A stretch of DNA of 64,000 nucleotides. It comes from a phage. Shown here piece by piece: positions 1 to 48,736 of the stretch. A program made the translations under genes and the position numbers. Location: sequence record PZ154897.1; one strand, given 5' to 3'. Position 1 is the stretch's first letter, and each line of letters starts with the position of its first letter. The notes beneath the pieces are model-generated. The model searched no databases. It had not been told where the DNA came from and worked only from the letters and a program-made list of their open reading frames with translations.

Positions 1-2314
<2,314 letters not shown>

Positions 2315-15175: not shown

Positions 15176-16687
15176 ATGACTGACATTAAAGTACATTTTT
15201 ATGATTTTAGTCACGTGAGAATTGATTGTGAAGAAAGTACATTTCATGAACTCCGTGATTTCTTTAGCTTTGAAGCTGATGGGTATCGTTTTAATCCGAA
15301 GTACAGATATGGCCACTGGGATGGACGAATCCGTCTTTTAGATTATAATCGTCTTCTTCCATTCGGCTTAGTCGGGCAAATTAAAAAGTTCTGTGATAAC
15401 TTTGGCTATAAAGCCTGGATTGACCCACAAATTAACGAAAAAGAAGAATTATCAAGAAAAGATTTTGATGAATGGCTTTCTAAATTAGAAATCTATTCAG
15501 GAAATAAAAGAATTGAACCACACTGGTATCAAAAAGATGCAGTGTTCGAAGGATTAGTTAATCGTCGTAGAATTCTTAATCTTCCAACATCCGCTGGTAA
15601 ATCTTTAATTCAAGCTTTGCTTGCTCGATATTATTTGGAAAATTATGAAGGTAAAATTCTTATCATTGTTCCAACAACTGCTCTGACAACTCAGATGGCT
15701 GATGACTTTGTTGACTATCGTTTATTCAGTCATGCAATGATAAAGAAAATCGGTGGTGGAGCATCAAAAGATGATAAATATAAAAATGATGCACCGGTAA
15801 TTGTTGGTACATGGCAAACTGTAGTAAAACAACCAAAAGAATGGTTCTCACAGTTTGGAATGATGATGAATGATGAATGCCATCTTGCCACAGGAAAAAG
15901 TATTTCATCTATCATATCAGGTTTAAATAACTGCATGTTCAAATTCGGTTTGTCTGGTTCATTACGTGATGGCAAAGCCAATATCATGCAGTATGTTGGA
16001 ATGTTTGGTGAAATATTTAAGCCAGTAACGACTTCTAAATTAATGGAAGATGGACAAGTAACTGAGTTAAAAATTAATAGTATTTTTCTTCGTTATCCCG
16101 ATGAGTTCACTACTAAATTAAAGGGAAAAACTTACCAAGAAGAAATAAAAATTATTACTGGGCTCAGTAAAAGAAATAAATGGATCGCTAAATTAGCTAT
16201 TAAGCTTGCGCAAAAAGATGAAAACGCTTTTGTCATGTTTAAACATGTATCGCATGGTAAAGCTATTTTCGATTTAATTAAAAATGAATACGATAAAGTT
16301 TATTACGTATCAGGGGAAGTTGATACAGAAACCCGCAACGTAATGAAAACCTTAGCTGAAAATGGTAAAGGAATAATTATAGTAGCTAGTTATGGCGTAT
16401 TTTCTACTGGTATTTCAGTTAAAAATCTGCATCATGTTGTTTTAGCGCACGGCGTTAAATCAAAAATCATTGTATTACAAACAATCGGTCGTGTATTACG
16501 TAAGCATGGTTCTAAAACAATCGCAACAGTCTGGGACCTCATTGATGACGCGGGCGTAGTTTCTAAATCAAAAACATCTTCTAAAAAATACTCGCATTTA
16601 AACTATCTTTTAAAACACGGACTTGATCGTATTCAGCGTTATGCTGATGAGAAGTTTAATTATGTGATGAAAGAGGTTAAACTTTGA
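15176..16687 (+). CDS. uvsW: UvsW recombination/repair helicase (SF2)
   Basis: 503-aa ORF; Walker A TSAGKS, DECH box; T4 UvsW length. Confidence 0.9.
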   Translation: MTDIKVHFYDFSHVRIDCEESTFHELRDFFSFEADGYRFNPKYRYGHWDGRIRLLDYNRLLPFGLVGQIKKFCDNFGYKAWIDPQINEKEELSRKDFDEWLSKLEIYSGNKRIEPHWYQKDAVFEGLVNRRRILNLPTSAGKSLIQALLARYYLENYEGKILIIVPTTALTTQMADDFVDYRLFSHAMIKKIGGGASKDDKYKNDAPVIVGTWQTVVKQPKEWFSQFGMMMNDECHLATGKSISSIISGLNNCMFKFGLSGSLRDGKANIMQYVGMFGEIFKPVTTSKLMEDGQVTELKINSIFLRYPDEFTTKLKGKTYQEEIKIITGLSKRNKWIAKLAIKLAQKDENAFVMFKHVSHGKAIFDLIKNEYDKVYYVSGEVDTETRNVMKTLAENGKGIIIVASYGVFSTGISVKNLHHVVLAHGVKSKIIVLQTIGRVLRKHGSKTIATVWDLIDDAGVVSKSKTSSKKYSHLNYLLKHGLDRIQRYADEKFNYVMKEVKL

Positions 16688-17376
16688 ATTATAAATTAAT
16701 ATATGATAATTTAATTAATAGAGCCCAGAATCGGGCTCGCCTTAATGGATACACTGAAACTCATCATATAATTCCTAGATGTATGGGCGGTACAGATGAT
16801 AAGTGTAATTTGGTAGAACTAACAGCTGAAGAGCATTTTATAGCTCATAAACTTTTAGCTAAAATTCATCCAAACCATTACGGTATAATTAAAGCCGTTA
16901 TATGTATGGGGATGAATTCAAAGACTCATGAAAGACACGTTAATAAATCTTACGCCTGGGAACGTCGTAAAATGGCAGAACTTCAATCAGGTGAAGGTAA
17001 TCCATTTTACGGAAAACACCATACGGAAGAACATAAACAATATATGTCAAAACTCATGAAAAATCGTCCAATTACGTGGGGAAGTAAAATTAGTAAAACT
17101 AAAAGAATGAACCCAACAAAATGGACTGAAGAAGCTAAAAGATTGCATTCTATCAATCAATCAGGTAAAAATAATGGCATGTATGGAAGGAAACATTCCG
17201 CTAAATCTATTCAGAAAATTAAAGATAACATGCCAGATAATTCAGGAGCTAATAACCCAGCTGCTAAACCTATAGAAGTAAATGGTGTTAAGTATAAATG
17301 CATGAAAGATGCTTCTAAAGCTACTGGATTATCAATGTACAAACTAAGAATACTTAGAAAAACAGTTAATTTATAA
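16684..17376 (+). CDS. HNH homing endonuclease with NUMOD3-like repeats
   Basis: 230-aa ORF; HHIIPRCMGG...N...EH..AH HNH motif; NPFYGKHHTEEHK repeats; N-terminus paralogous to 43031-43762; TTG start overlapping uvsW stop. Confidence 0.8.
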   Translation: MNYKLIYDNLINRAQNRARLNGYTETHHIIPRCMGGTDDKCNLVELTAEEHFIAHKLLAKIHPNHYGIIKAVICMGMNSKTHERHVNKSYAWERRKMAELQSGEGNPFYGKHHTEEHKQYMSKLMKNRPITWGSKISKTKRMNPTKWTEEAKRLHSINQSGKNNGMYGRKHSAKSIQKIKDNMPDNSGANNPAAKPIEVNGVKYKCMKDASKATGLSMYKLRILRKTVNL

Positions 17377-40237: not shown

Positions 40238-41825
<1,588 letters not shown>

Positions 41826-41833
41826 AATAAAAT

Positions 41834-41847
41834 GGGCCTTGCGGCCC
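41834..41847 (-). terminator. hairpin between nrdB and denA
   Basis: GGGCC-TTGC-GGCCC with U-run on minus strand. Confidence 0.5.
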
Positions 41848-41852
41848 ACTCC

Positions 41853-43031
41853 TTAAAAGTATTTTTTAAAACTCATCATAACTTTATCATCAACATCATT
41901 ATCAATCTGTGCAACAAGGTAAGATGACAGTTCTACTTCTTGTGGCGCGGATTGAACATTATCAGAATTAAGATATTCACGAATCCAAGGATATGGGTGT
42001 TTAACCGGAGCATCGGTAATTGGGCATGGAAGACCACACTGTTTCATACGAGATACAGTTAAGTAATCAATAAAGCTCCACATGCTATTTGTATTTAATC
42101 CAGGAACATCACCATCTTTAAATAAATGAACTGCCCAGTCTTTTTCTTGACGGTTAACTTCCATGAAAATATCAACTGCTTCTTGTTCACACTCTTGAGC
42201 AATTTTAACCCATTCATCACCATCAGTTCCAAGCTGAAGTTGACGAATAATATATTGAGTGCCTTTAAGGTGAAGCTGCTCATCACGAGCAATGAACTTC
42301 ATAATCTTGGCATTACCTTCCATGATTTCCATGTTCTTATGGAAGTTAAATGTACACGCGAAAGATACGTAAAAACGAATAGCTTCCAGGGCGTTGATTA
42401 CATGAAGGCAAAGATAAAGAGATTTCATTAGTGCTCGTTTAGCTTCGGCTTCTTGTTTAATAGCTCGATTTAAACGAAAATCAGCATCAGGAGATTCTTT
42501 GGCTAGTTCTACAAATTCTTTAGCATTTTCCCATTCACGGGTCTTCTTAAGAACATCATCGTAATAGCGACCAATGGACTCAGCGCGTTTCATAATATCT
42601 TCATCTAATACAATCTCATCAAATACCTTTGACGGATCAGTATAAAGATTTCGCATGATATGGGTATATGAACGACTATGAATAGTTTCACTAAAAGTCC
42701 ATGTAGCAACCCATGTATCAAGACTTGGGTCTGAAATTAACGACATAAGTACAGCAGACGGTGCACGACCCTGAATGCTATCTAGAAGTGATTGATACTT
42801 CAGGTTATTAGTAAAAATATCTTGCTGATATTGAGGAAGCTTGTTAAATTGTGCAGCATCCATCATCAAGTTTACTTCTTCAGGACGCCAGAAAAATGAC
42901 AATTGCTTTTCGGTTAAATCTTCAAAAACTTTATGGCGTTGAATATCATAACGCGCAATACCAAGACCTGAACCGAAGAACATAGGTTCTTTTAAAACAT
43001 CAACTGGATTTGTATTAAAAACTGTAGACAT
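41853..43031 (-). CDS. nrdB: ribonucleotide reductase small subunit NrdB (intronless)
   Basis: Continuous ORF from MSTVFNTNPVD; no intron interruption. Confidence 0.93.
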   Translation of the reverse strand: MSTVFNTNPVDVLKEPMFFGSGLGIARYDIQRHKVFEDLTEKQLSFFWRPEEVNLMMDAAQFNKLPQYQQDIFTNNLKYQSLLDSIQGRAPSAVLMSLISDPSLDTWVATWTFSETIHSRSYTHIMRNLYTDPSKVFDEIVLDEDIMKRAESIGRYYDDVLKKTREWENAKEFVELAKESPDADFRLNRAIKQEAEAKRALMKSLYLCLHVINALEAIRFYVSFACTFNFHKNMEIMEGNAKIMKFIARDEQLHLKGTQYIIRQLQLGTDGDEWVKIAQECEQEAVDIFMEVNRQEKDWAVHLFKDGDVPGLNTNSMWSFIDYLTVSRMKQCGLPCPITDAPVKHPYPWIREYLNSDNVQSAPQEVELSSYLVAQIDNDVDDKVMMSFKKYF

Positions 43032-43762
43032 TAATTTTTCCTCTTTAAAATTCTGCCGTGTTTCCAACCTGGCGGAATAATATCATCTTTACCTATAAGC
43101 GTGCATTCACTTCCATTATTAATCCATTTCTTACCGCGGATTCCTTTATAATCTCTTGGTTTTATTTTGTCAAACTTTGCATCAAGTTGATATGACCATC
43201 TAAATCCATAAGCATATTGAAATTTACCCTCGGCACAATATTTGATATTTGATCCGTTTCCATTAACTGACCGGGACGCTGCCGCAATAGAGTGAAAGGT
43301 TTCTATGAAATCCCCGTCTAATGAGAATTTATGTATTTCTATAGATGGGCATGCATATCTATTCACGTTTGATACATGCTGTTTAGTTTCGTTTTTATGG
43401 TGCTTGCCTAACATTCCTTTAGGATGAGGATTATTTTTCCAATATTTCTTAAAGAACTCAGAATTAGCTTTAGCAAATAATTTTCTGTGTAAGCTGTACA
43501 ATCTGTTATTAATTCTATTGCCAGCTTTATCTGTTGCCATTAACGTTAACGCAGAGGCAAGCCCAAAATGGCCTTCATTTATCTTACATAGTAGTAGATG
43601 AGCTATAAAATGTTCTCTGGCTGTTAATTCAACTAAATTTTCCTTATCATCAGAACCTCCCATACATCTAGGGATTATATGATGTGTCTCTTTATATTCT
43701 GATAAAGATTCCCGAGCCTGAGCTCGGGAAATTAGGTCGTTATAGATTTTTTGATAATTCAT
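43031..43762 (-). CDS. mobE: HNH homing endonuclease, MobE-like, between nrdA and nrdB
   Basis: 243-aa ORF; HHIIPRCMGG...EHFIAH HNH motif; position as T4 mobE. Confidence 0.8.
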   Translation of the reverse strand: MNYQKIYNDLISRAQARESLSEYKETHHIIPRCMGGSDDKENLVELTAREHFIAHLLLCKINEGHFGLASALTLMATDKAGNRINNRLYSLHRKLFAKANSEFFKKYWKNNPHPKGMLGKHHKNETKQHVSNVNRYACPSIEIHKFSLDGDFIETFHSIAAASRSVNGNGSNIKYCAEGKFQYAYGFRWSYQLDAKFDKIKPRDYKGIRGKKWINNGSECTLIGKDDIIPPGWKHGRILKRKN

Positions 43763-46026
43763 TACAATTTACACGCTGCGCAATCATCGGCTTTTGGAGT
43801 TTCTATTTCGTAATCATCAGTACCGGAACCATCACGAGTATTATGATAATAGAAGTTTTTAATGCCATAATACCATCCGTATAGCATGTCATCAATCATT
43901 ATTGACATTGGAACCTTTCCTTTTGGAAAAATCTGCGGGTCATAATATGTATTTGCTGAAGCTGATTGACATACCCATTTAAGCATAATAGCTACCTGCG
44001 TAAGATAAGGTTTATTACCTTTCTTAGCTAATTTCCATGTATAATCATATAGGTCTATGTTATGTTCAATATTGGGCACGACTTGATTAAAGGAACCCTC
44101 TTTTGATTCTTTAACAGAGACTGGTCCACGTGGAGGCTCGATACCGTTTGTACTGTTAGAAACTTGGGAAGATGACTCACATGGCATAAGTGCTGATAAT
44201 GTGCTATTACGGATGCCAAAGAGCTTAAGGTCTTCCCGCAGCGCCGACCAGTCACAAACGTATTTTGGAGCTGCGATTTGGTCAATCTTTTTATTGTACC
44301 AGTCGATAGGTAATTCGCCTCGAGACCAACGAGTGTCTGAATAATATTCGCAAGGTCCTTTTTCTTTGGCGAGCTTAATGGATGCTTTAATGAGTCCATA
44401 CTGTAATCTCTCAAATAGTTCATGTGTTAAATCGTTAGCATCTTCATAAGAAGCAAAGTTACTTGCCAGCCAAGCTGCATAGTTGGTAACACCTACACCA
44501 AGATTTCGACGCTTTTTAGCTTTTTCTGCTTCAGGAACTGGATATCCTTGGTAATCCAAAAGATTATCAAGAGCACGAACTTGAACTTCTGCTAATTCAT
44601 TAATTTTATCTTGGTCTTGCCAATCGAAGTTATCCAACACAAATGCAGATAACGTACACAATCCAATTTCGGCATCAGGACTATTCACATCATTTGTTGG
44701 AATAGCAATTTCACAGCACAAATTACTCTGACGAATAGGTGCCTTTTCACGAATAAATGGAGTATAGTTATTCGTATTATCAATGAACTGTACATAAATC
44801 CTTGCTGTTCCTGATCGTTCAGTCATGAGTAGTTCAAACAGTTCACGTGCTTTAATACGCTTTTTACGAATATTAGGGTCTTTTTCTGCGGCTTCATATA
44901 ATTCACGGAAACGGTCTTGGTCTTTAAAATAAGAATAATAAAGCTCGCCACCCATTTCATGCGGACTGAACAAAGTAATGTAGTCGTTCTTTCCAAAACG
45001 TTCCATCATCAAATCATTCAGCTGGACGCCATAATCCATATGACGGATACGGTTTTCTTCTACACCTTTGTTATTTTTCAAAACGAGAAGATTTTCAACT
45101 TCCAAATGCCAAATAGGATAATAAGCAGTAGCAGCGCCGCCACGAATTCCACCCTGTGAGCATGATTTAACAGCAGTCTGAAAATGTTTCCAAAAAGGAA
45201 TAACACCAGTATGGCGTACTTCACCTGTGCCAATCTTAGAACCTTCAGCACGAATCATACCAACGTTAATGCCAATTCCAGCTCGTTTAGAAATATATTC
45301 AACAATTGAAGCGGAAGCCTTATTGATAGACTTCAATGAATCTCCTGCCTCAATAACAACACATGAACTAAACTGTCGAGTCGGAGTACGGCAACCAGCC
45401 ATAATAGGAGTTGGCAATGAAATCTGTCGAGTAGATACTGCTTCATAAAAACGAATAACATGTTTTAATCTATCAACAGGTTCATCTTGATGCAATGCCA
45501 TTCCAATAGTCATAAATGCAAACTGTGGAGTTTCATAAATTTGACCAGTGGTTTTATCTTTAACTAGATATTTTTCTTTTAATTGCATCGCCCCGGAATA
45601 AGTAAATTCCATATCCCGCTCGTGCTTAATTTTTGATTCTAAAAATGTAATTTCTTCTGCTGAATATTTTGACAATAATTCAGGGTCGTATTTACCTTCA
45701 TTTACACAGTAAGAAATATGGTCAATAAATGAACGTGGTTCATACTGCCCATAAACATGCTTACGAAGAGCAAACATTAAACACCGTGCAGCTACGTATT
45801 GATAATCAGGCTCTTCAACCGAAATAGAATTCGCAGCAGCCTTAATTACAATGGTTTGAATGTCATCAGTGGTCATTCCATCACGGAGATATGATTTAAT
45901 ATTTTCATATAATTCATAAGGATCTACAGATGTTCCTTCAGCTGCCCAAGATAAAACTTTAATAATTTTTTGCGGGTCAAAGCTCTGAGAAACACCACTA
46001 CTTTTGATAACATTAATTAATTGCAT
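43762..46026 (-). CDS. nrdA: ribonucleotide reductase large subunit NrdA
   Basis: 754-aa ORF; T4 NrdA length; C-terminal CxxC. Confidence 0.95.
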   Translation of the reverse strand: MQLINVIKSSGVSQSFDPQKIIKVLSWAAEGTSVDPYELYENIKSYLRDGMTTDDIQTIVIKAAANSISVEEPDYQYVAARCLMFALRKHVYGQYEPRSFIDHISYCVNEGKYDPELLSKYSAEEITFLESKIKHERDMEFTYSGAMQLKEKYLVKDKTTGQIYETPQFAFMTIGMALHQDEPVDRLKHVIRFYEAVSTRQISLPTPIMAGCRTPTRQFSSCVVIEAGDSLKSINKASASIVEYISKRAGIGINVGMIRAEGSKIGTGEVRHTGVIPFWKHFQTAVKSCSQGGIRGGAATAYYPIWHLEVENLLVLKNNKGVEENRIRHMDYGVQLNDLMMERFGKNDYITLFSPHEMGGELYYSYFKDQDRFRELYEAAEKDPNIRKKRIKARELFELLMTERSGTARIYVQFIDNTNNYTPFIREKAPIRQSNLCCEIAIPTNDVNSPDAEIGLCTLSAFVLDNFDWQDQDKINELAEVQVRALDNLLDYQGYPVPEAEKAKKRRNLGVGVTNYAAWLASNFASYEDANDLTHELFERLQYGLIKASIKLAKEKGPCEYYSDTRWSRGELPIDWYNKKIDQIAAPKYVCDWSALREDLKLFGIRNSTLSALMPCESSSQVSNSTNGIEPPRGPVSVKESKEGSFNQVVPNIEHNIDLYDYTWKLAKKGNKPYLTQVAIMLKWVCQSASANTYYDPQIFPKGKVPMSIMIDDMLYGWYYGIKNFYYHNTRDGSGTDDYEIETPKADDCAACKL

Positions 46027-46283
46027 AAGTCCTCAACTTGAAAATCGTCTTTAAACAATCGGTTAACTATATGAGCTATTATATCACCATGACACGGCTT
46101 TGGTTTACATGTGCATCCTAGCCTCATTCCACGTAAAGGCTCTAAATGTGCTTTAGTTATTTCTCCGGATTTAATTCGACGTATAAAATCTTTTTTGAAT
46201 AATTCAATGGCAGCCTCCCGGCTGCCAGCATCTTTACCGACGTAATTTCCCCCAAAATGTACCACGGTGAATATTAACATCAA
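46017..46283 (-). CDS. hypothetical Cys/His-containing protein (nrdA.1 position)
   Basis: 88-aa ORF; CTCKPKPCHGD. Confidence 0.45.
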   Translation of the reverse strand: MMLIFTVVHFGGNYVGKDAGSREAAIELFKKDFIRRIKSGEITKAHLEPLRGMRLGCTCKPKPCHGDIIAHIVNRLFKDDFQVEDLCN

Positions 46284-46297
46284 AGTCGGATTTGTAT

Positions 46298-46573
46298 TTA
46301 TTCACTACCTGGCATAGACGGCCCGCGCGGTGATAATTCGTCATATTGTTTTTCCGTTAAAACAGTAATATCATAGTAACAATCAGAAGAAGTTTTAACT
46401 GTGGAAATTTTATTATCAAAATACTCACGAGTCATTTTATGAGTATAATATTTTTTGCCATAAATGATAATAGGCTGTTCTGGTCCTGGAACTTCTAACT
46501 CGCTTGGATTAGGAAGTGTAAAAAGAACGACACCAGAAGTATCCTTAAATCGTAAAATCATATATCCTCTCAA
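46298..46573 (-). CDS. hypothetical protein (nrdA.2 position)
   Basis: 91-aa ORF. Confidence 0.45.
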
Positions 46574-46584
46574 TTAAATTAAAA

Positions 46585-46896
46585 TTACACCGCCATCTTT
46601 CCTTTAATTGGCGGGTGAGATTCGTAACCTTTAAGAACGAAATCTTTAGGCCTGAGTTTAAGAACATATTTTAATTGTTCTTTAGTAGAAAGATAGCGGA
46701 ATTTATAAGGTAGACCACTTATTACCAGCTCACAAAGCTCTTTAGGTTCACGACGTAAAATTTCTTTACATTGTTCTACGTGATTCATATAGATATGAGT
46801 ATTACCACCAGAAAATATCAAATCTCCTGGAATAAGATTACACATCTTAGCTACAATATGAACTAACGCAGCATATGATGCAATATTAAATGGAAG
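46585..46896 (-). CDS. td: thymidylate synthase, exon 2
   Basis: Encodes LPFNIASYA...KGKMAV; joins exon 1 after intron removal. Confidence 0.9.
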   Translation of the reverse strand, partial: LPFNIASYAALVHIVAKMCNLIPGDLIFSGGNTHIYMNHVEQCKEILRREPKELCELVISGLPYKFRYLSTKEQLKYVLKLRPKDFVLKGYESHPPIKGKMAV

Positions 46897-47158
46897 CATT
46901 ATGTTCAGATAAGGTCGTTAATCTTATCCCGGAATTATATCCAGCTGCATGTCGCCATGCAGTTCAGACTATATCTTCAACTTGTTAAAGCAAGTTGTCT
47001 ATCGTTTCGAGTCACTTGACCCTACTCCCTAAAGGGATAGTCGTTAGGCATTTATGTAGAACCAAAGTCCTACAATTTAGCACGGGATTGTCTACTAGAG
47101 AGGTTCCCCGTTTAGATAGATTACAAGTATAAGTCACCTTATACTCAGGCCTCAATTA
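46897..47158 (-). ncRNA. td group I self-splicing intron, ORF-less (262 nt)
   Basis: Starts UAAUUGAGGCCUGAGUAUAAGGUGAC after exon ...CUUGGGU, ends ...CUGAACAUAAUG; matches T4 td intron core by recall; no internal ORF. Confidence 0.85.
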
Positions 47159-47706
47159 ACCCAAGAAAACATCTACAGAACGTTGATACCACTGCAAATC
47201 CAAATAGCCATTACGCACATTAAACTGATAGAACATATGACAAGGCGGTAATGCCATATATTTAAGTTCAGCTGGATTCCACGCCGACACAATTTGACGC
47301 CTATCATTCGGCAGTTTTTTAATACGATCAATAACTTCTACAATTTGGTCTACACCGCCAAAATCACGCCACTGTTTTCCATAAATTGGACCAAGTTCAC
47401 CACTATGATATCCTAAATCTTTTGCTTGATTTTCGTAATTTTCATCCCAGACTGTTTTGCCTTGAATTAATGAATCATGCTGAATTAATCGTAAATCATT
47501 TACGTTAGTACTTCCTGACAAAAACCAAAGGAGCTCAGCAATACAAGCTTTCCAGGCGAGCTTCTTAGTCGTTACTGCAGGAAAACCTTTAGTTAAATCC
47601 CAGCGTAATTTAGTACCGAACAGAGCAATTGTTCCTGTGCCTGTTCGATCATCAGTTTCATAACCATTTTCCAGGATATCTTTAATTAAAAATTGGTATT
47701 GTTTCA

Positions 47707-47707
<1 letters not shown>
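47159..47707 (-). CDS. td: thymidylate synthase, exon 1
   Basis: 183 codons from MKQYQ to SVDVFLG; start overlaps upstream ORF stop (TAATG). Confidence 0.9.

Positions 47708-48736
<1,029 letters not shown>

Follow-up and report, generated by a model that had tools for sequence, protein, structure and literature searches.

The thymidylate synthase gene (td) of the T4-like phage studied here is read in two pieces, and the question is whether the break marks a pseudogene, a border between two genes or an intron and, if it is an intron, what became of the homing endonuclease I-TevI that is encoded within the td intron of T4. The window, meaning the whole stretch of 64,000 nucleotides that was analysed, comes from a Tequatrovirus genome that is ~94–96% identical to T4 and the nearest deposited phages over the 24 kb compared, and identical to none of them. 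The original prediction, made from the sequence alone, placed a 262-nt intron with defined ends after codon 183 of td, and both the ORF list and an alignment with T4 (reference NC_000866.4, where the td intron is 1017 nt by our own count) locate the break at exactly these positions (Table 1). The intron begins with TAATTGAGGCCTGAGTATAAGGTGACTTATAC and ends with ...CTGAACATAATG; in the RNA it opens with an in-frame UAA and closes with ...CAUAAUG, the terminal G being the same as in T4. When the two exons are joined the reading frame is restored and gives a thymidylate synthase of 286 aa, of which 277 are identical to the T4 enzyme, and at the nucleotide level the exons share 807 of 861 positions with T4. 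The split td would accordingly be a functional gene with an intron, neither a pseudogene nor the pair of genes that most deposited records show, and is best annotated as a joined CDS. Some small ORFs can be found within the intron (47 aa in sense and 32 and 45 aa in antisense direction) and were dismissed as read-through of ribozyme sequence.

Table 1. Features of the td and nrdB regions in the window, differences between the window and T4 td introns, and positions of compact-P6a introns in other phages
Feature	Position	Strand	Description	Basis
td (thymidylate synthase) exon 1	47707..47159	minus	549 nt, 183 codons, C-terminal end ...VDVFLG	ORF list and T4 alignment
td group I intron, ORF-less	47158..46897	minus	262 nt	Rfam RF00028 and T4 core alignment
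td exon 2	46896..46585	minus	103 codons and stop, N-terminal end LPFNIASYA	T4 alignment
P6a hairpin UGUAGGAC-UUUG-GUUCUACA	47055..47074	minus	8-bp stem, UUUG loop, holds the deletion junction	alignments and independent MFE prediction
I-TevI frame vestige	47044..47065	minus	22 nt, T TGG TTC TAC ATA AAT GCC TAA = W240 F241 Y242 I N A stop	
T4 difference	intron 129		L7.1, loop position	
T4 difference	intron 182		J8/7, A in window = Rfam consensus base	
T4 differences (two)	intron 195-196		J7/9, joiner positions	
T4 difference	intron 205		L9, GUGA to GCGA, GNRA loop kept	
T4 difference	intron 232		P9.2, G.U to A-U	
nrdB	41853..43031	minus	intronless, continuous ORF of 392 aa	Pfam Ribonuc_red_sm
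mobE-like HNH homing endonuclease gene, free-standing	43031..43762	minus	243 aa, between nrdA and nrdB	
denA (endonuclease II)	41415..41849		other flank of nrdB; GIY-YIG, not HNH	
Compact-P6a intron, CJY920	L006:701-954			alignment
Compact-P6a intron, GRNsp7	L007:701-954			alignment
Compact-P6a intron, SEA1	L008:701-950			alignment

A search with Rfam revealed a match to the group I intron family RF00028 on the minus strand (47168..46945, 76 bits, E 1.6e-17, gathering score 50), which is the sole Rfam match across the window; the intron is one that we take to belong to subgroup IA2. The proposed likeness to the core of the T4 td intron was borne out by alignment, since the two share the insertion site after codon 183, the splice junctions, the P1 sequence UUGGGU, the terminal G and the helices P1–P9.2, and 256 of the 262 nt are identical (93 of 93 in the first part and 163 of 169 in the last). 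The td secondary structure was drawn by hand on the window sequence with the helices P1, P2, P3, P4, P5, P6, P6a, P7, P7.1, P7.2, P8, P9, P9.1 and P9.2, and all of its 74 pairs are canonical, including those of the P3/P7 pseudoknot. In P1 the last six nucleotides of exon 1, UUGGGU, pair with the internal guide sequence GCCUGA of the intron.

To this structure 13 td introns were aligned, nine of them from Tequatrovirus (the window, T4, PD112, 215Ecol030PP, BYEP01, C2-3, F1, CJY920 and GRNsp7) and the others from SEA1 and Melville (Gelderlandvirus), PspYZU05 (Jiangsuvirus) and Klebsiella phage EI. Across the alignment 99.0% of the cells are paired, all 13 introns have the U.G wobble at the 5' splice site, and compensatory changes, affecting both sides of a pair, are seen in 12 pairs against 2.6 expected from shuffles, none of 500 shuffles reaching 12. 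When the 3' partners were shifted by 1–3 columns pairing fell to 29–44%, a control that is biased toward the drawn structure as this was drawn from the window. An unconstrained MFE fold (z = -4.5) recovers P2–P6a, P7.1, P7.2, P8, P9, P9.1 and P9.2.

Precursor RNAs of td self-splice in vitro with UUGGGU as the P1 substrate (PMC2729099) and, with a core so nearly identical to that of T4, the intron in the window is predicted to self-splice in the same guanosine-dependent manner. The td RNA would fold into the P1–P9.2 ribozyme and leave the pre-mRNA by a guanosine-initiated two-step transesterification, joining ...GGU to CUU... and so restoring the full-length enzyme, while in unspliced RNA translation would terminate at the UAA with which the intron begins. 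Exon 2 would be translatable only after splicing, and when compared to T4 it holds ~19 nucleotide changes and only 4 amino acid changes; the excess of nucleotide over amino acid changes points to purifying selection and hence argues for splicing. As T4 does not need td on thyA+ hosts, the intron might instead be a splicing-dead relic and td a pseudogene in a phage that relies on the thymidylate synthase of its host. This is very unlikely, since all helices and the joiners of the catalytic core are intact, each of the six differences from T4 either lies in a loop or joiner or makes a pair stronger, neither exon is interrupted and purifying selection acts on both (54 nucleotide against 9 amino acid differences from T4), and four phages isolated independently have kept this allele.

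The functional reading of td leaves the fate of I-TevI to be explained. In T4, L6a contains the I-TevI ORF with its GIY-YIG, zinc finger and DNA-binding domains. An intron free of any endonuclease ORF had been foreseen, and both the ORF list and tblastn with I-TevI agree with this, the latter finding no I-TevI catalytic domain in the 64-kb window; all that is left of I-TevI is its last six codons and the stop. Alignment with T4 located the missing loop as L6a, the window intron being without T4 intron nucleotides 94–848, a clean gap of 755 nt, with P1–P9.2 all paired. The I-TevI ATG is situated at T4 intron position 133 and the missing block consists of 39 nt upstream of the ATG together with codons 1–238, that is, the whole L6a insert. 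In T4 the region upstream of I-TevI contains a late promoter/operator and a hairpin at the ribosome binding site (PMC2988022, PMC3014915), and the 39 nt fall inside the segment that is absent from the window. Compared with the T4 intron, that of the window lacks the endonuclease and the autorepressor site and has no means of homing autonomously. In this it resembles the laboratory ΔORF td constructs with a shortened P6a, made for splicing studies and able to self-splice in vitro (PMC2729099), which likewise are a ribozyme without the L6a insert, but it is natural, is located in a phage genome and has endpoints of its own.

The deletion junction lies between 47066 and 47065, with an ambiguity of 1 nt, and shows a microhomology of 1 nt only. 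The 22-nt vestige of the I-TevI frame which follows it (Table 1) is at the same time the 3' strand of P6a, the P6a/P6 internal loop and the 3' strand of P6. A repeat-mediated 755-nt deletion through the imperfect repeats GGACTTG/GGAATTG was considered and rejected, as it predicts GGACTTGGTTC, one T short of the sequence observed. The position of the junction, hugging the base of the 8-bp inverted repeat, would be compatible with hairpin-assisted slippage. A single deletion of 755 nt would have removed the L6a cassette (late promoter/operator, ribosome binding site hairpin and I-TevI codons 1–238) and ended at the base of the P6a stem, the UUUG tetraloop on the 8-bp stem being its product.

That the intron of the window most likely derives in this way, by one deletion, from an intron containing I-TevI is suggested first by the P6a stem, which together with both loop ends matches the sequences flanking I-TevI in T4, Melville and PspYZU05, phages of three genera. 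The Pfam domain PF20987 (I-TevI_DNA-bd) covers I-TevI residues 192–242, i.e. through W-F-Y, and a tblastn search of the phage collection revealed a free-standing GIY-YIG endonuclease gene in phage AnYang, located between genes 33 and 59 and outside any intron, whose product aligns with residues 1 to Y242 of I-TevI (E 6e-13). At the end of this alignment SDKWTGWKY of AnYang stands against SDKWN-WFY of I-TevI, with W240 and Y242 conserved. From the span of PF20987 and the AnYang alignment the W-F-Y codons are best seen as sequence of the endonuclease gene, which the ribozyme is unlikely to have contained beforehand, an argument for which one free-standing homologue (AnYang) was inspected in detail. 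When the I-TevI DNA-binding region was searched against a large protein collection, only four td-intron fragments were matched, which gives no measure of how widespread the C-terminal W-x-Y is, and the I-TevI C-terminus yielded no BLASTP alignment with the mobE-like protein of the window. The P6a/L6a region of the window intron is not free of endonuclease-derived sequence, as the 3' strand of P6a and the loop consist of the W-F-Y codons of I-TevI.

The opposite direction would make the 262-nt intron a primitive, never-invaded form, into whose P6a tetraloop I-TevI was later inserted elsewhere, nothing having been lost in the lineage of the window. Several observations fit such a history: the missing segment is very nearly the cassette in its entirety, and what remains, a 4-nt loop on a stem of 8 bp, is also how an empty pre-insertion site would look; the junction carries just the one nucleotide of microhomology, whereas the deletions in phages F1 and EI are repeat-mediated; ORF-less td introns with a compact P6a are known in CJY920, GRNsp7 and SEA1; and the 262-nt allele occurs on several core haplotypes and is hence not very recent. 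We nevertheless regard it as improbable, since the stem would need to contain by chance an in-frame W-F-Y-I-N-A-stop whose W and Y correspond to conserved residues of a free-standing homologue and fall inside PF20987, the introns that truly look uninvaded carry unrelated sequence in P6a, and deletion intermediates in the same loop are found among other phages. A polarity based on trees was not established because the intron cores look recombinant. Loss of the endonuclease from the intron, put forward in the original prediction as a possibility, is thus favoured by the I-TevI-flanking P6a stem, by the vestige of the reading frame and by the partial deletions that have arisen independently elsewhere.

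To place the allele among other td introns the phage collection was searched, giving 644 records that match the td region and 259 that match the td intron (at 'near' sensitivity), 38 of the latter having the short form, defined as one place covering at least 80% of the 262 nt. I-TevI itself is common among related phages, with 211 records covering at least 80% of a 49-residue query from its C-terminal DNA-binding part. The same deletion junction, GGACT/TTGGTTCTAC, in an intron of 262–263 nt is found in vB_vPM_PD112 (two records), vB_EcoM_CE1, 215Ecol030PP and BYEP01, so the allele is already present in public phage genomes and is an ordinary finding; ORF-less group I introns and the decay of homing endonucleases are textbook phenomena. 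These introns are 95.8–98.1% identical to that of the window, from which they are set apart by a few core polymorphisms; AA at intron positions 195–196 is unique to the window, and the BYEP01 intron is marked by a variant P8 and one additional G in P6a. In all four phages td is annotated as two separate CDSs (thymidylate synthase/hypothetical). The suggestion that the intron and endonuclease profile can type the phage therefore holds to a limited extent, with at least four deposited phages sharing the allele and cores that look recombinant. The junction 18-mer GTAGGACTTTGGTTCTAC was also searched in IMG/VR, where it was not found in a td context; its five exact loci there, none with a group I intron by Rfam, were set aside as chance matches. 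The literature searched gave no description of natural ORF-less td introns, although it is unproven that they have not been described in print.

Engineered ORF-less td introns are in wide use and one deposited annotation of td cites a cloning plasmid, so that the short intron could in principle be an assembly artefact or a laboratory ΔORF construct. Such an origin is extremely improbable, as the genome around td reaches just ~94–96% identity with T4 or any phage deposited, isolates from separate records and countries, e.g. Poland and China, have exactly this junction, and the core has natural polymorphisms in common with wild phages.

Other deposited td introns share the insertion site and the P6a stem with the window and are also deletion derivatives of I-TevI, with other endpoints and with remnants of the ORF. 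In the F1/G28/112 class (~446 nt) the deletion took place via CATTTTAAA repeats and left a 55-aa ORF fusing GIY-YIG and DNA-binding parts (P0004), in Klebsiella phage EI (315 nt) it went via TGGAATT repeats and left a remnant fusing the start and the end, and in the C2-3/HP3 class (320 nt) the last 22 I-TevI codons are kept. The deletions in F1 and EI are flanked by direct repeats of 7–9 nt. The partial deletions in these three classes are independent of one another. In the case of EI (MN106245.1, L009) the td annotation carries the note 'with intron of plasmid pMTL007C-E2', presumably because the best match of the annotator was a cloning vector with an engineered td intron; the same record is classified outside Straboviridae despite its T4-like td region.

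A further group consists of introns with a compact P6a, found in CJY920, GRNsp7, N2, HMD-9 and 236Ecol005PP (254 nt) and in Salmonella phage SEA1 (250 nt), which like that of the window are ORF-less, with the same core at the same insertion site. Three of them were inspected, and their P6a elements are unrelated 4-bp hairpins, GUUC-UUUU-GAAC in CJY920, CAGC-AGUA-GCUG in GRNsp7 and GUUC-GAAA-GAAC in SEA1, with no sequence derived from I-TevI, whereas the window retains the I-TevI-associated stem. Apart from P6a the cores of these three resemble the I-TevI-containing introns of their own genus. SEA1 shares core variants with the I-TevI-containing intron of Melville, which belongs to the same genus. 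The compact-P6a introns may represent the uninvaded state, and P6a together with the ORF may move as one module between cores.

Taken in the order full I-TevI, F1 (446 nt), C2-3 (320 nt) and EI (315 nt), the window (262 nt) and the compact hairpins (250–254 nt), the td introns of Tequatrovirus and its relatives might form a natural series that covers the whole decay of a single homing endonuclease gene, a reading that we hold tentatively and consider somewhat doubtful. If true and undescribed, such a series would offer a directly testable view of the life cycle of a homing endonuclease in lytic phages, and it would suggest that P6a stem and endonuclease cassette move together. It would also suggest that loss of the ORF is favoured, since an intron without it continues to shield td from I-TevI and splices better than one with it. 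The window intron would provide a clean natural example of homing endonuclease loss from a ribozyme that is still intact, and the state of L6a (full, truncated, cleanly deleted or a compact hairpin) could mark the history of recombination among T4-like phages.

Without I-TevI the intron would have no self-driven homing and would be inherited vertically or by ordinary recombination. The I-TevI site spans 38 bp, with a primary binding region of 20 bp centred on the intron insertion site (PMC2988022), and from a site spanning the insertion point it follows that a td which contains the intron, be the ORF present or not, would be refractory to cleavage. As the ORF-less intron still splits this homing site, td of the window would be immune to I-TevI from co-infecting phages. 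In addition, the 3' end of the I-TevI ORF overlaps P6/P6a/P7, and its translation hinders the formation of these elements and impairs splicing (PMC2988022, PMC3014915); loss of the ORF would end this conflict between translation of I-TevI and folding of the intron, and any selective benefit to the phage may lie there.

The second T4 intron gene considered, nrdB, is a single continuous ORF as had been predicted. Exons 1 and 2 of T4 nrdB align contiguously and end to end on it at 42356/42355, and the group I intron encoding I-TevIII is absent, with no second Rfam group I match in the 64-kb window. HNH genes, in the plural, had been said to sit beside nrdB instead of the intron. This part did not hold, as only one HNH gene is located there, the other flank being occupied by denA (Table 1). 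The HNH protein is 64% identical to T4 MobE over 104 aa and contains the Pfam domains NUMOD1 and HNH (phrog_655, homing endonuclease), although at 243 aa it is longer than T4 MobE with 141 aa. T4 harbours mobE in the same position between nrdA and nrdB together with the nrdB intron, so the mobE-like gene is no replacement for the intron. The ends of this gene fall on the same coordinates as ends of nrdA (43762) and nrdB (43031). A second mobE-like HNH gene is found on the plus strand at 16684–17370; it has NUMOD3 repeats and weakly matches part of the I-TevI DNA-binding domain.

The identity of nrdB to T4 is mosaic, 84% in the part corresponding to exon 1 and 97% in that of exon 2, with the break in the BLAST alignment at the T4 intron site, 42356/42355, and may reflect a gene-conversion tract near the target of mobE/I-TevIII. 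In PD112 nrdB (L002:10009-11491) is annotated as two CDSs ~334 nt apart, which suggests that this phage carries a short ORF-less nrdB intron, while nrdB of the window has none. The nrdA.1 homologue (DUF4326, 46017–46344, minus strand) looks frameshifted, with ORFs of 36 and 88 aa, and residues 1–32 and 30–108 of T4 NrdA.1 align in different frames (46344–46249 and 46256–46020).

On the other side of td, an ORF of 68 aa (47707–47913, minus strand; phrog_9550, function unknown, no Pfam match) is situated between frd and td, its stop overlapping the td start (TAATG). T4 and F1 are without this ORF and in both frd abuts td. At the same position, the comparison being one of position, PD112, C2-3, GRNsp7 and BYEP01 have a 207-nt ORF for a hypothetical protein, and all four carry ORF-less or shortened td introns.
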